A stretch of DNA of 64,000 bases, from the NCBI RefSeq assembly GCF_045037415.1, contig NZ_CP173438.1, one strand, 5' to 3'. Below the pieces are notes generated by a model that saw nothing but the letters and a program-made list of their open reading frames with translations, searched no databases and was not told where the DNA came from. Source of the DNA: Escherichia coli (GTDB taxonomy: Bacteria; Pseudomonadota; Gammaproteobacteria; Enterobacterales; Enterobacteriaceae). Each line of letters begins with the position of its first letter. Position 1 is the stretch's first letter. Made by a program: the position numbers and the translations under genes. Below, one piece after another: positions 53,908 through 59,072 of the stretch.

Positions 53908-56166
53908 TCAAATCAATCCTGCCAGATGGAATTCTTCATATAATCGTTTTGGCGTTAGCGGCAGTGTATTGATTGCAACACCGGTAGCCATCTTCACCGC
54001 GTTACGAATAGCAGCGGCTACAGGAATTATGGGTGGCTCACCCAGTGACTTATGTCCGTATGCGGATTGCGGCTCATTGATTTCGACGAACGCGCTTTCC
54101 AGTTGTGGCAGATCCGGCATGGTCGGCATTTTGTAATCCAGCAGATTGGGGTTACGGACCACGCCGCTTTTCGCATCGATGATCATCTCTTCAAATAGCG
54201 CCCAGCCAATGCCCATCCCCATTCCGCCGTGTACCTGACCTTCTGCCAGCAGCGGATTAAGAATATGGCCCGAATCATGAACGTTGAGGATGCGGTTGAT
54301 GGTTACTTTACACAGTGCAATATCGACCGTCAGATCAACAAAGGTACAGCCAAACGCCGGTGGGTTAGTGGTGGTTTTGATGGAGCTTTCGGCAGAGAGC
54401 TGCCCGCCGCGTTCAGGGTGGTAGAAAGCGTCCATCGCCAAATCTTTTAACGACATTAACGGCTCTTCCGGTCGTTCAACCAGCACGATATGGCCTTTTA
54501 TCAGGGTCAGATTCATCGCTGACTGATGTAGCATGACTGCGGCGTGAGCGATGATTTTCTCTTTTAATAACAGTGCCGCACTGCGCAGCGCAGGCGCGGC
54601 AACATAGCTCTGACGTGAGGCAAATGCGCCGGGGTCGAATGGTGTAACGTCGGTGTCTTGTGTCGAAATTACGCGGACATCGCTGACCGGAACTCCCACG
54701 GTTTCTGCCACCATTTGCGAGAACACGGTGTCGGCACCCTGGCCGATTTCCGTCGCGCCGCTTTGCACGTTGATGGTTCCATCCTGATTCATCAACAGGC
54801 GCGCGCCTGCTATTTCTACGCCGACAGGCCAGGTGTTAGAGGTGTAGCTAAAACAGGCGACGCCAACGCCACGACGTAAATTGCCTTGCTGGTTCTGGCA
54901 CTCTGCACGGCGTTTTTCCCATTCAAAGATTTTCCGGCCTTTTTCAAGACACTCCGGCAACCCTGCGCTGTAAATACGTTTTCCCGTGAGCGGATTAGCA
55001 TCTCCTTCGCGGGCGGCGTTGCGTAAACGAATTTCAACAGGATCAATACCTAACGCTGTCGCGGCATCATCAAGCATAGACTCAACGGCAAATACGACTT
55101 GTGGCGCGCCATAACCACGCATCGCACCAGCCGAGGGGAGGTTGGTATAGCAGGTCTTTGAACTGTAAGCGTAGGCACAACGAGGATAAAGGTAAGCGAC
55201 TTTATTCCCCCCAGCAGAAGCAATGGAGTGCCCGTGAGATGCATAAGCGCCGGTGTTAGACAGAACATCCAGACTATAACCTTTCAATGTTCCGTCGCGG
55301 TTCACGCCCATTTGCCCGTCAATAGTAAAAGCGTGGCGGGTACGGGTTGCGAGGAAACACTCTTCACGGCTAAGAGAAACTTTCACCGGAATGCCGCCAA
55401 GTTTGCTTGTCAGGAATGCCGCCATTGGCTCTTCCAGTACATCCTGTTTATTACCAAAACCGCCACCGATAAACGGTTTGATGACTCGTACGCATGACCA
55501 GGGAATATCCAGCGCCTGACCAACCACGCGGCGAACAATGTGCGGGATCTGGGTGCTGGAAACGATGGTAATTCGCGAGTCATCCTCCATCCATGCCAGC
55601 GATGTCACGCTTTCCATATGACAATGTTGAATAACGGGCGTCTGATAGTGCCCCTGTACCTGGTAGTCGGCGGCATCGATTGTTTGTTGGACATTACCCG
55701 TCGACATCGTGCTTTGTTTCAGTAAATTGCCACCGTTATGGATTGGTGCAGCGTCTTCTGCCAGCGCCGCTTCTGACGAGGTGATAACGGGTAATTCTTG
55801 CCACTCAATGCTGACCAATTGCACCGCTTTTTCTGCCGTGAGTTCATCGCGGGCTACGACGATGGCAACGGCGTCACCATGATGACGAACATGACGCGTT
55901 AGCAGGGCACGATCGGCAGTATCGCGCTTGTTTTCGTCAAGTGTCCAGGCATGCCCTGCCGTGGCGAATGGGATTTCTGGCACATCTTCCCAGGTAAAAA
56001 TCGCCAGGACGCCCGGCAAACTCCTGGCTTGTTCATCATTAATACTTACGGCATAACCATGTGCGATAGGGCTACGTACATATTTCGCGTAACACATGCC
56101 CGCCATAACATAATCGTCAGTATATCGTGCCCGCCCGGTGACCTTAGCAATGGCATCGACGCGCAT
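53908..56166 (-). CDS. xdhA: Xanthine dehydrogenase molybdenum-binding subunit
   Basis: Track ORF 53908..56205; start MRVDAIAKVTGRARYTDDY gives 752 aa. Confidence 0.93.
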   Translation of the reverse strand: MRVDAIAKVTGRARYTDDYVMAGMCYAKYVRSPIAHGYAVSINDEQARSLPGVLAIFTWEDVPEIPFATAGHAWTLDENKRDTADRALLTRHVRHHGDAVAIVVARDELTAEKAVQLVSIEWQELPVITSSEAALAEDAAPIHNGGNLLKQSTMSTGNVQQTIDAADYQVQGHYQTPVIQHCHMESVTSLAWMEDDSRITIVSSTQIPHIVRRVVGQALDIPWSCVRVIKPFIGGGFGNKQDVLEEPMAAFLTSKLGGIPVKVSLSREECFLATRTRHAFTIDGQMGVNRDGTLKGYSLDVLSNTGAYASHGHSIASAGGNKVAYLYPRCAYAYSSKTCYTNLPSAGAMRGYGAPQVVFAVESMLDDAATALGIDPVEIRLRNAAREGDANPLTGKRIYSAGLPECLEKGRKIFEWEKRRAECQNQQGNLRRGVGVACFSYTSNTWPVGVEIAGARLLMNQDGTINVQSGATEIGQGADTVFSQMVAETVGVPVSDVRVISTQDTDVTPFDPGAFASRQSYVAAPALRSAALLLKEKIIAHAAVMLHQSAMNLTLIKGHIVLVERPEEPLMSLKDLAMDAFYHPERGGQLSAESSIKTTTNPPAFGCTFVDLTVDIALCKVTINRILNVHDSGHILNPLLAEGQVHGGMGMGIGWALFEEMIIDAKSGVVRNPNLLDYKMPTMPDLPQLESAFVEINEPQSAYGHKSLGEPPIIPVAAAIRNAVKMATGVAINTLPLTPKRLYEEFHLAGLI

Positions 56167-56618
56167 GCATGATTCACCCGTAGCGGTTGCTTCCCGCGCT
56201 TCCATAGAAATCCCCTCGGTTTGAACATTTGGTTCTTATGGCAAAGATTTAGTCTTAGCAGGCAAGAATTACGCCAGAAACGACTATATGCGTGAGGGGA
56301 GGAAGGAAGTGTGATGACGTTAAAAAAACACAGATATGATACGAAACAGGACTCTGAATAGGGACAGTGATACGTATCAATATGAGTGGCGATAAAATCA
56401 ATGTGATAAATTAGGATTATTACGCATCAAGGTGGGAAATAGGGTAAAAGTCAGGAAATTCGATACCACTACAGCAAATATTTTGCTGATGATACTTCCC
56501 TTTGCCAAATGAAATTAACCTCTTTCTCTATTACATCGTTTTTCCAGAAGCAAGAGATTGGGTATCAAGAGGCTGGCTGCTATGATATGGCGTCTTGTTT
56601 TTTAAGCGAGGAAAGATT

Positions 56619-57374
56619 TTGAGTGCGGGACGCCTGAATAAAAAATCTCTGGGTATCGTGATGTTGTTATCGGTTGGACTGCTTTTGGCGGGCTGTTCGG
56701 GTAGCAAATCATCCGATACAGGAACGTATTCCGGCTCCGTTTACACCGTGAAACGGGGGGATACGCTATATCGTATTTCGCGCACCACGGGAACCAGCGT
56801 AAAAGAACTGGCGCGACTGAACGGCATTTCCCCCCCTTACACCATTGAAGTAGGTCAGAAACTAAAACTGGGTGGGGCGAAAAGTAGCAGTAGTACACGT
56901 AAATCAACCGCCAAATCCACGACCAAAACCGCATCGGTTACACCGTCATCAGCGGTACCGAAATCTTCCTGGCCGCCAGTAGGGCAACGTTGTTGGTTAT
57001 GGCCAACGACAGGGAAAGTTATCATGCCGTATTCGACAGCAGATGGCGGCAATAAAGGGATTGATATCTCAGCTCCACGAGGTACACCTATTTACGCCGC
57101 GGGTGCAGGAAAGGTGGTGTATGTGGGCAACCAGCTGCGTGGCTACGGTAATCTCATCATGATTAAACACAGTGAAGATTACATTACGGCTTACGCTCAT
57201 AATGACACGATGCTGGTAAATAATGGGCAAAGCGTGAAGGCTGGGCAAAAAATCGCCACTATGGGGAGCACTGATGCGGCATCTGTTCGCCTGCATTTCC
57301 AGATTCGTTACCGTGCAACGGCAATTGATCCGCTACGTTACTTGCCGCCTCAGGGCAGCAAGCCAAAATGCTGA
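56619..57374 (+). CDS. ygeR: LysM / M23-peptidase-domain lipoprotein (septal murein hydrolase activator)
   Basis: Track ORF 56595..57374; likely TTG start (RBS gaggaaag) giving 251 aa; lipobox LLAGCSG; C-terminal M23 (LytM) domain. Confidence 0.88.
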   Translation: MSAGRLNKKSLGIVMLLSVGLLLAGCSGSKSSDTGTYSGSVYTVKRGDTLYRISRTTGTSVKELARLNGISPPYTIEVGQKLKLGGAKSSSSTRKSTAKSTTKTASVTPSSAVPKSSWPPVGQRCWLWPTTGKVIMPYSTADGGNKGIDISAPRGTPIYAAGAGKVVYVGNQLRGYGNLIMIKHSEDYITAYAHNDTMLVNNGQSVKAGQKIATMGSTDAASVRLHFQIRYRATAIDPLRYLPPQGSKPKC

Positions 57375-57452
57375 TGGCGAATTAATCAGCAGTCAGCAGC
57401 GTGGTACTTGCTAAGGAGAGCGTAAGGTTTATAATGCCTTACGCATCTCGAA

Positions 57453-57526
57453 GCGGGCGTAGTTCAATGGTAGAACGAGAGCTTCCCAAGCTCTATACGA
57501 GGGTTCGATTCCCTTCGCCCGCTCCA
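57453..57526 (+). tRNA. glyU: tRNA-Gly (anticodon CCC)
   Basis: 74-nt sequence gcgggcgtagttcaatggtagaacgagagcttcccaagctctatacgagggttcgattcccttcgcccgctcca; cloverleaf with CCC anticodon in the cttCCCaag loop; 3' CCA encoded. Confidence 0.95.
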
Positions 57527-57842
57527 ATTTATCTTCACATCATCTACCTGCCATTTTTGTTGTATCTGATTTTCTATATTATCTTAATTCAAGCGCTTCA
57601 GACTTTTCGCAATCGCCGTAATACTTCCCCATTTTTTTGTAAATAAAAAGCGTTTACGCAATGCAATCGTCATGTATCTTAAATAGTCTTATTTAAGATG
57701 TTCAGAACTCTTTGTGTGTTTAACTGGCTGATAATTATATAATATTACGAGAGAAGTGATAGAGCGGAATAATAACAAATGAACATTATGAAAACTGGGA
57801 TGGTTCAAAATTGAAGCAATTTTGAACCATCCACAACGGATA

Positions 57843-59072
57843 TTAGCTAAAGAACATTACCGATACGCACAGGATACCCACGATCAGGGTAATCAGATTT
57901 CCGATGGAACGCCAGGGTTTAAGCGCCGGGATGAGATACGTTGACAGCGTAGGCATGATGAAAAGTATCATGGCAATGAGCGGGCCGCTGATCGCGTAAA
58001 TCATCGAAATCGCGTTCGGGTTAATGCAACAAACAATGAAGGTAATCAGCGATACCAACATAATTGATAGTGCGCGGTTAAATGCACGACTTTTCTTTAC
58101 ACCAACCTGCTGTAATGTTGTTTTGACGACCTCTGTGGCACCTTCAATAACGCCAAAGTACGTACCCAGGAATGATTTCGACATCGCAACTACTGCGACA
58201 ATAATCCCGGAAATTGACAACCATGCTGGGGCGTTCGGCAGCATAGAAAGCGCCGATAAAATGGTAACCCCTTCTTCTTTAGCCGCTTCAATATACGAAG
58301 GTGGAATAGAAAGCAGGCAGCTAAAGACAAAGAACAATACACTTATGCAGATGATGAGATAAGCGACTTTCATAATTTTTTTGCATTTATCCATAGCATG
58401 TTCGCCATATTTTTCACGTCTGTCTATGGCAAACGTAGAAATAATGGGCGTATGGCTAAAAGCGAAAACCATCACGGGAATCGATATCCATATCTGGTGA
58501 AGGGTATTCTGATTGAACTCTACCTGGGTTGTTAATAGATCAGGTTGCCAACTACCGACCAGGTAAATAGAAAGAAATAAGAAATAGGCAATCAATGGGA
58601 ATACCAAAAATCCCATTACCCGAATAGTGGCATGGCGTCCCATCAGAAAAATGAGATTCAGGATTAATACAACCCCCAGACTCACTAGCATACGGATGCG
58701 AAGATCAATAACCATATGCTTTGCCAGCTGTTCCGTAAGTGAGTTGGTAATTGCCACTGCATATATCAACACGACGACAAAAAAGGCGATGAAGTACAGC
58801 GTGGTAATCAGATTACCAATCTTCTTGCCATAGTAGTGTGTTACCGCGCCCGTTATCCCTTCACCTGCTGATGTTTTCGATGAGAGGATGAACTGGCATA
58901 AGGCTTTATGTGGCCAATATGTTAAAGGCCAGGCGACCAGAGCAGTAATAAACAGGACCACAGCCCCCGCCGAACCTAACTGAATAGGAAGGAAGAGCGT
59001 GCCTGCACCAACGGCTGTGCCGTAGAGTGCGAAACTCCACAGAGTTTCTTCTTTTGACCAAATATTAGACAT
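57843..59072 (-). CDS. yqeG: Amino-acid (Ser/Thr-type, HAAAP family) transporter YqeG
   Basis: 409-aa polytopic membrane ORF MSNIWSKEETLWSFALYGTAVGAGTLFLPIQLGSAG... Confidence 0.9.
   Translation of the reverse strand: MSNIWSKEETLWSFALYGTAVGAGTLFLPIQLGSAGAVVLFITALVAWPLTYWPHKALCQFILSSKTSAGEGITGAVTHYYGKKIGNLITTLYFIAFFVVVLIYAVAITNSLTEQLAKHMVIDLRIRMLVSLGVVLILNLIFLMGRHATIRVMGFLVFPLIAYFLFLSIYLVGSWQPDLLTTQVEFNQNTLHQIWISIPVMVFAFSHTPIISTFAIDRREKYGEHAMDKCKKIMKVAYLIICISVLFFVFSCLLSIPPSYIEAAKEEGVTILSALSMLPNAPAWLSISGIIVAVVAMSKSFLGTYFGVIEGATEVVKTTLQQVGVKKSRAFNRALSIMLVSLITFIVCCINPNAISMIYAISGPLIAMILFIMPTLSTYLIPALKPWRSIGNLITLIVGILCVSVMFFS

Follow-up and report, generated by a model that had tools for sequence, protein, structure and literature searches.

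The start codon of actS (ygeR) in the window, by which we mean the whole 64,000-nucleotide stretch of Escherichia coli DNA analyzed here, is confirmed as an in-frame TTG at positions 56619 to 56621 on the plus strand. This start is correct but not new: the reference annotation already has it, and the literature names it. Evidence that does not depend on annotation, namely, the comparison of orthologs and the mapping of the transcript, also strongly favors TTG 56619. What is added here is that annotation-independent case, together with grounds for rejecting the readings of 259 and 237 aa and a tally of wrong starts in databases. For biology, an established TTG start adds little; the practical value lies in annotation, where hundreds of database copies of this exact protein have been called from the wrong codon. 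We assign a probability of roughly 0.93 to the account as a whole, which runs from the promoter to a lipoprotein initiated at UUG 56619 and in which we infer both the use of the UUG in vivo and lipidation.

Reading frame and reference annotation

From TTG 56619, the reading frame is open to the stop codon at 57372 to 57374, which gives an actS coding sequence of 756 nt (56619 to 57374, plus strand), or 251 codons plus the stop. Mapping of the RefSeq coding sequence onto the window (from positions 1914 to 2669 of locus L001) returns the same interval. The reference annotation, which the earlier note had named as a check, places the start at TTG 56619 both in strain SK1144, whose actS coding sequence corresponds to 56619 to 57374 of the window, and in K-12, where the MG1655 coding sequence likewise measures 756 nt; the DNA of this region is 100% identical to that of SK1144 and 97.4% identical to that of K-12. 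The proposal that ygeR starts at a TTG is thus borne out by RefSeq, by a published description of the “TTG start codon” (PMC8360153), by the orthologs, and by transcript mapping. The coordinate first attached to that proposal, 56595, is the first possible start of the open reading frame (ORF) covering the locus, and the intended TTG lies 24 nt farther 3′.

Opening with TTG 56595 and ending with the same stop (57372 to 57374, plus strand), the full ORF would encode 259 aa. Further in-frame candidates lie on the 3′ side of TTG 56619, in a GTG-ATG-TTG cluster at 56658 to 56666 (plus strand) made up of GTG 56658, ATG 56661, and TTG 56664, and would yield products of 238, 237, and 236 aa, respectively. 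The earlier note had held that no ATG is suitably placed; ATG 56661 is indeed unsuitable, but it is present and in frame, 42 nt 3′ of the TTG.

No ygeR/actS entry is present in the TRAINSPOTTER (nascent N termini), TetRP, and PMC5576327 supplements. Standard N-terminal proteomics, a check named in the earlier note, would not reveal where this lipoprotein starts, because its first 25 residues are cleaved off by signal peptidase II.

Lipoprotein signal and domains of the product

The 251-aa reading begins MSAGRLNKKSLGIVMLLSVGLLLAGCSG, and the N terminus of the precursor can be written as MSAGRLNKKSLGIVMLLSVGLLLAG|C, with cleavage before the Cys. Its lipoprotein signal peptide (56619 to 56693, plus strand) comprises 25 residues, with R5, K8, and K9 in the n-region, a hydrophobic core, and a terminal L-A-G encoded at 56685 to 56693. 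The codon of Cys26 (56694 to 56696, plus strand), the predicted lipidation site and residue +1 of the mature protein, is followed by Ser at +2. This reading agrees with the original description of a 251-aa lipoprotein initiated at the TTG and bearing the lipobox LLAGCSG, which is encoded at 56682 to 56702 and in which L-A-G-C forms residues 23 to 26 (56685 to 56696); the motif [LVI][ASTVI][GAS]C ends the hydrophobic stretch.

Under PROSITE rule PS51257, the Cys falls at residues 15 to 35 and a Lys or Arg occurs in the first seven residues. By this rule, the product of TTG 56619 passes (Cys26 and R5), as does that of TTG 56595 (Cys34 and K4/R5), and that of ATG 56661 fails (Cys12 and no K/R). 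The choice of start therefore determines whether the protein is recognized as a lipoprotein that carries a proper signal peptide.

Two domains follow the signal, in the order that membership of the ActS family requires: a LysM peptidoglycan-binding domain at 56742 to 56870 (plus strand; Pfam PF01476, E = 1.6e-17, residues 50 to 92 of the 259-aa ORF) and a degenerate LytM (Peptidase_M23) domain at 57051 to 57332 (plus strand; Pfam PF01551, E = 8e-33, residues 153 to 246 of the 259-aa ORF). The product also scores 454.7 bits (E = 5.8e-137) against the ActS equivalog model NF040883 of NCBIfam, for which the cutoff is 375.

M23 enzymes carry the motifs HxxxD and HxH. The active-site region of the LytM domain encoded here has NKGID at the position of the first and RLH at that of the second, which fits the “degenerated catalytic domain” reported for the K-12 protein (PMC8360153). 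According to the same study, ActS is a predicted outer membrane lipoprotein, its LytM domain is degenerate, and it activates the amidases AmiA, AmiB, and AmiC.

Ribosome-binding site

A Shine-Dalgarno (SD) sequence, GAGGAAAG, occupies 56608 to 56615 on the plus strand, and its GAGG core (56608 to 56611) ends 7 nt before the start codon, within the range of 5 to 10 nt looked for in SD-led UUG initiation. When SD strength is taken as the predicted pairing with the 3′ end of 16S rRNA, ACCUCCUUA, TTG 56619 reaches -8.3 kcal/mol, versus -1.5 kcal/mol for TTG 56595 and -3.7 kcal/mol for each of GTG 56658, ATG 56661, and TTG 56664, so that the best SD does precede the TTG, as had been supposed. Across 79 orthologous loci, the GAGG core is held at a fixed distance (-11 to -8) with 77 to 94% conservation per position, and the start-codon TG shows 100% conservation. 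The nucleotide profile of these 79 loci peaks at GAGG and again at the start codon and is low farther upstream.

Conservation of the start codon among orthologs

A single scan of a collection of species-representative genomes returned 80 loci, ranging from Escherichia to Buttiauxella, Cedecea, and Shimwellia, which with the window make 81 orthologs, each anchored on the lipobox Cys; a lipobox and then the Cys were present in all 81 of the orthologous reading frames scanned. The homologous start codon is TTG in 71 of the 81 and GTG in the other 10, and in none is it ATG. Counted at exactly 25 positions before the lipobox Cys, the codon is TTG in 67/81 and GTG in 5/81; in five Klebsiella-type loci, a GTG sits one codon upstream of the usual start position, and three loci have the TTG at -24, owing to an indel. 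The TTG is also kept in locus L057, where a 1-nt deletion at the lipobox amounts to a downstream frameshift, and in locus L080 an ATG directly precedes the GTG, the homologous site itself not being ATG.

The site behaves as a start codon rather than as a Leu codon. No CTN codon occurs there in any of the 81 orthologs, and the three cases of TTA are Klebsiella-type loci with a GTG immediately upstream. By comparison, ten conserved internal Leu columns, used as a control, employ five to six synonymous codons each, TTG accounting for 2 to 22%; because the internal Leu codons are scrambled in this way, the invariance of the start TTG does not merely reflect low divergence. In many Enterobacter-type loci, moreover, the conserved TTG is the sole in-frame ATG, GTG, or TTG between the upstream stop and the Cys.

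Promoter and mRNA 5′ end

The transcript data point to the same codon. Drawing on RegulonDB RACE data, the supplement of the Reg-Seq study (PMC7567609) places the ygeR transcription start site (TSS) on the reverse strand of K-12 at position 2999918, and by the coordinates of the INRI-seq study (PMC9825163) the annotated ygeR start lies at 2999890; the two together give a 28-nt leader. Since K-12 and the window are colinear here, without indels, the TSS maps to 56591 (plus strand), with the accuracy of the published RACE, about 1 to 2 nt. Reg-Seq assigns the ygeR promoter to the class with an RNA polymerase site only and reports mutation-sensitive footprints termed “-10,” at -14 to -5, and “-35,” at about -34 to -23 (PMC7567609). 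In the window, these footprints correspond to 56577 to 56586, coinciding with an extended -10 element, TGcTATGAT (56578 to 56586, plus strand), and to 56557 to 56568, within which lies a -35-like TTGGGT (56558 to 56563, plus strand), 17 nt upstream of the -10 hexamer; together they form the proximal actS promoter.

The -10 element is also the motif found among the orthologs: TAT[GCA]AT lies 32 to 41 nt before the start in 59 of the 79 loci (shuffles lead one to expect 2.6), almost always with TGn in front of it, and a box of the TTGG(G/C) type is conserved 16 to 17 nt upstream of the motif. A generic promoter and terminator scan missed the actS promoter, because its -35 box matches at only 3/6 positions; the matches of that scan were confined to the region upstream of the tRNA and to one on the minus strand. 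An additional sigma-E promoter has been described 186 nt upstream of actS (PMC8360153, citing EcoCyc). It is unsupported here: no match turned up near 56433 in a simple consensus scan, and the region is unconserved beyond E. coli proper.

Start calls in public databases

An exact-sequence look-up of the N-terminal versions of this protein in public collections recovered the 251-aa form (TTG 56619) in at least 1,000 contigs, the 237-aa form (ATG 56661) in 403, including that of strain APEC O1, the 238-aa form (GTG 56658) in 61, and the 259-aa form (TTG 56595) in 10, including that of CFT073. The expectation that callers restricted to ATG would mis-start or miss the gene is therefore partly right. 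Mis-starts are real, as the 237-, 238-, and 259-aa entries attest, but missing the gene is not, since the version read from the ATG is still an ORF of 237 aa, so that the gene is mis-started rather than missed.

Competing start sites

The longest ORF would put the start at the first in-frame TTG, at 56595 to 56597 (plus strand), and produce a 259-aa precursor, MFFKRGKILSAGR. This form is annotated in E. coli CFT073 and UTI89 (e.g., AAN81888.1, among the 10 contigs mentioned above), and it would still have basic residues in the n-region and would place the Cys at residue 34. The TSS at 56591, however, would leave this codon at +5 behind a leader of 4 nt, with no room for an SD, and the pairing available to it is just -1.5 kcal/mol. 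Leaderless-type initiation normally needs a 5′-terminal AUG, which further counts against a TTG in this position. TTG 56595 is, moreover, present only in Escherichia and in one locus labeled Citrobacter, and an in-frame stop separates it from the conserved TTG in Salmonella (3 to 6 codons before the TTG) and in many other genera. On the grounds of the 4-nt leader, the weak SD, and the narrow distribution, we rejected TTG 56595 as the start, and the 259-aa reading is close to refuted.

Many automated annotations instead begin the protein at ATG 56661 or GTG 56658, for 237 or 238 aa, and these forms account for the 403 and 61 contigs noted above. They have some experimental basis in INRI-seq (PMC9825163), an in vitro retapamulin profiling of synthetic transcripts with a 30-nt 5′ untranslated region and a threshold of 5 CPM, in which ATG 56661 corresponds to an initiation site at +42 with 7.75 CPM in 2/5 replicates. 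That peak, however, is barely above the threshold and comes from a synthetic transcript, and the in vivo Ribo-RET value at the position is 0. Neither codon has an SD (-3.7 kcal/mol), both would place the Cys at residue 12 or 13 with no K/R before it, and the ATG and GTG at 56658 to 56661 are missing in most genera, whereas the upstream TTG, its SD, and the frame are conserved; a start at either codon is accordingly very improbable. The same in vitro peak could be read as dual initiation, with TTG 56619 producing the exported lipoprotein and ATG 56661 a minor, truncated isoform that would be nonexported or unstable, and there are published precedents, such as speA, among the in-frame internal starts that are discussed as changing localization (PMC9825163). 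The Ribo-RET value of 0 at +42 in vivo, the lack of an SD, and the lack of conservation of the ATG weigh against this possibility as well, and although it is less remote than either of the wholesale replacements of TTG 56619, we consider it unlikely; any product from ATG 56661 is probably translational noise.

Proposed path from promoter to lipoprotein

Taken with initiation at TTG 56619, these elements suggest the following course of expression. A proximal sigma-70 promoter (-35 TTGGGT at 56558 to 56563 and extended -10 TGcTATGAT at 56578 to 56586) would transcribe actS from about position 56591, giving the mRNA its 28-nt leader. The GAGG core at 56608 to 56611 would then position the 30S subunit for initiation 7 nt downstream, at UUG 56619. 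The predicted product is a 251-aa prolipoprotein in whose signal peptide a basic n-region, with R5, K8, and K9, leads into a hydrophobic core and then the lipobox, L-A-G|C; this precursor would be exported, lipidated on the predicted site, Cys26, and cleaved. The mature form would be an outer membrane-anchored protein, with LysM and degenerate LytM domains, that activates peptidoglycan amidases. The weak start codon may help to keep levels of ActS low.

Conserved sequence after the start codon

Beyond the start itself, an SD-like GGGA (AGGA in most orthologs) is situated at 56627 to 56630 (plus strand), 8 nt after the start codon. [A/G]GGA occurs at +7/+8 in 73/79 loci, across differing encoded residues, and the block GC[A/G]GGAnGCC just 3′ of the start codon is kept as nucleotides: the AGGA is retained where it encodes Ala-Gly (GCA GGA) as it is where it encodes Lys-Glu (AAG GAA), and nGC is maintained even as codon 5 varies among Arg, Ser, and Cys. 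Wherever residue 4 is Gly in this register, its codon is GGA among the loci listed; as a control, GGA makes up 8.9% of the codons at 18 other conserved Gly columns.

Folded as a single sequence, the leader and the first codons were no stabler than shuffles (z = +1.13), and RNAalifold, applied to the start region of 30 diverse orthologs, gave -0.14 kcal/mol with no covarying pair; with no conserved structure, structure accounts for neither the TTG nor the post-start AGGA block. A candidate pairing of the mRNA 5′ end, GGCGTC (56589 to 56594), with GACGCC (56628 to 56633) was discarded, as it is not kept in Enterobacter, Kosakonia, and Kluyvera and is absent from the RNAalifold result.

In 16 loci, among them those of Klebsiella, some Kosakonia, and Pseudescherichia, the AGGA is followed after 6 nt by an ATG, with which it forms a second plausible SD-start module. 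This ATG stands 6 codons downstream of the TTG/GVG site in these roughly 16 other species, and in the Klebsiella group the first SD-start module is rearranged. Outside E. coli, translation may perhaps not start solely, or even mainly, at the homologous TTG in every species; in E. coli, the codon corresponding to the second-module ATG is AAT, so the E. coli start call is unchanged.

The primary start site has undergone at least five independent T-to-G changes among the 81 orthologs and no T-to-A change, which would have produced ATG. The absence of ATG from this site, considered with the AGGA, suggests selection for low output, and one may tentatively picture the translation initiation region of actS as a conserved low-output module in which a weak start is combined with a second SD-like AGGA 7 to 8 nt downstream, although we hold this interpretation to be rather doubtful. 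Possible explanations of the AGGA are a relic, a decoy, a pause site, or, in the approximately 16 species with the ATG, the SD of the second start. A conserved weak start and a post-start AGGA would be in keeping with the low basal expression that has been reported for ActS; these are minor questions.

Relationship to known systems

The AUU codon of infC is an example of a conserved weak non-AUG start that limits or regulates expression. Like genes of the infC type, actS keeps a non-AUG start over a long evolutionary distance, but unlike them, it has no known or demonstrated autoregulatory or discrimination mechanism.

The closest counterpart of the gene in the window is ActS/YgeR of K-12 (b2865, “amidase activator ActS”), which is the same gene with the same TTG, 251 aa, the same predicted outer membrane lipoprotein signal, and the same LysM and degenerate LytM domains; within the gene, the two differ in nothing of substance. 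YgeR was renamed ActS by Gurnani Serrano et al. in 2021 (PMC8360153), who repeatedly mention “the actS TTG start codon,” describe cloning “from the TTG start codon,” and complemented phenotypes with plasmid-borne actS. NlpD shares the layout of an outer membrane lipoprotein with LysM and degenerate LytM domains, as well as the role of AmiC activator (PMC8360153). The NCBIfam model of NlpD, however, matches the actS product only partially, with 265.5 bits against a cutoff of 311 and coverage limited to the C-terminal part of the model, and ActS is a distinct, shorter paralog of NlpD.

Genomic context

The actS locus is present in 5,414 of 5,426 complete E. coli genomes, with 95 to 100% identity, and the annotation is actS in all 29 of the chromosomal matches listed. 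In the window, the gene is flanked by xdhA (53908 to 56205), which is divergent from it, and downstream by a tRNA-Gly(CCC) at 57453 to 57526 (plus strand), identified by ARAGORN, by Rfam (RF00005, 71.6 bits), and in RefSeq; this tRNA was the only element found in an Rfam scan of both strands from 55800 to 58000 at E ≤ 1. K-12 has ygeQ and IS2, remnants of ETT2, after the tRNA-Gly, whereas the strain of the window is without these and yqeG follows directly. Two ORFs on the opposite strand, at 56531 to 56707 (58 aa) and 56602 to 56934 (110 aa), are mechanical calls antisense to a well-supported gene.

A conserved Shine-Dalgarno-like block downstream of the actS start codon

The nucleotides that follow the TTG start of the amidase activator gene actS (formerly ygeR) are themselves conserved: a Shine-Dalgarno-like [A/G]GGA lies 7 to 8 nt beyond the start codon and is maintained as nucleotide sequence in 73 of 79 orthologous loci. 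In the window, this block occupies positions 56625-56637 (GCGGGACGCCTGA), with homologous positions in loci L003-L082, the 80 orthologues from the species-representative genomes. Codon 4 is GGA in every listed locus that encodes glycine there, against 8.9% GGA in the other conserved glycine columns of the gene, and codon 5 specifies arginine, serine or cysteine depending on the locus yet retains the form nGC. No conserved RNA structure that would account for the post-start [A/G]GGA was found.

In about 16 species (L017, L024, L029, L035, L036, L038, L045, L047, L048, L050, L060, and L063-L065), an ATG stands 6 nt beyond the post-start AGGA, approximately 18 to 21 nt past the TTG or GTG. A protein initiated at this ATG would carry a lipoprotein signal peptide of very canonical form (e.g., MRKRFVIAIMLLSSLIVAGC), and the main actS start in these species may differ from that of E. 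coli. In Klebsiella-type loci, TTA replaces the upstream TTG, and a GTG sits one codon earlier.

Public databases carry the identical ActS protein with four N-termini, a concrete example of inconsistent start calling: a database look-up returned the version of 251 amino acids (aa) from at least 1000 contigs, together with versions from the alternative window starts at 56661 (237 aa, 403 contigs), 56658 (238 aa, 61 contigs), and 56595 (259 aa, 10 contigs). The Leclercia adecarboxylata NCTC13032 locus (L057, 1484-1580) retains the actS TTG and its Shine-Dalgarno sequence but has a 1-nt deletion in the lipobox (GCGGATGCG, versus GC[AG]GG[CA]TG[CT] in relatives), and the resulting frameshift reflects either an error in sequencing a homopolymer or a pseudogene.

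Promoters upstream of actS

A proximal sigma-70 promoter is located at 56558-56591, with a -35 element TTGGGT, a 17-nt spacer containing TG, a -10 element TATGAT, and a transcription start site near 56591. It is conserved in 59/79 orthologous loci (2.6 expected by chance) and falls in the same place as the published Reg-Seq footprints (PMC7567609) and RACE transcription start site; a generic promoter scan did not pick it up. According to EcoCyc, as cited in PMC8360153, a putative sigma-E promoter lies 186 nt before the actS TTG. A simple scan for GGAACTT-N15-17-TCnAA revealed no such promoter at approximately 56390-56440, a region conserved only within E. coli proper, whereas the proximal promoter is conserved more widely.

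The extended -10 promoter is absent upstream of actS in Buttiauxella, Cedecea, and related genera (L068, L070, L074, L077, L078, L081, and L082). These same seven loci have, immediately 5' and some 30 to 70 nt before the actS start, a terminator-like element, in which T residues come after a GC-rich inverted repeat (e.g., ctcctcccggcgggaggagcttttt), so that the transcriptional organization of actS would differ in those genera.

Genes flanking actS

Just past the actS stop codon and about 18 nt upstream of tRNA-Gly(CCC), a strong promoter-like site at 57408-57435 (TTGCTA, 16 nt, TATAAT; 10/12 matches) is probably the tRNA's own promoter. In K-12 (L002, 2823-4359), the tRNA-Gly is followed by the ETT2-remnant region, with ygeQ, a hypothetical gene, and IS2, whereas in the window (57527-59072) it is followed directly by yqeG (57843-59072, minus strand); therefore, the tRNA-adjacent island appears to be absent from this strain. 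On the other side, xdhA (53908-56205, minus strand) is annotated by RefSeq as 765 aa from the ATG of the longest open reading frame. In the INRI-seq alternative-start table (PMC9825163), several in vitro peaks fall within the 5' end of xdhA from K-12, one of them at an in-frame ATG at +60, and the xdhA start may warrant the same kind of scrutiny as that of actS.
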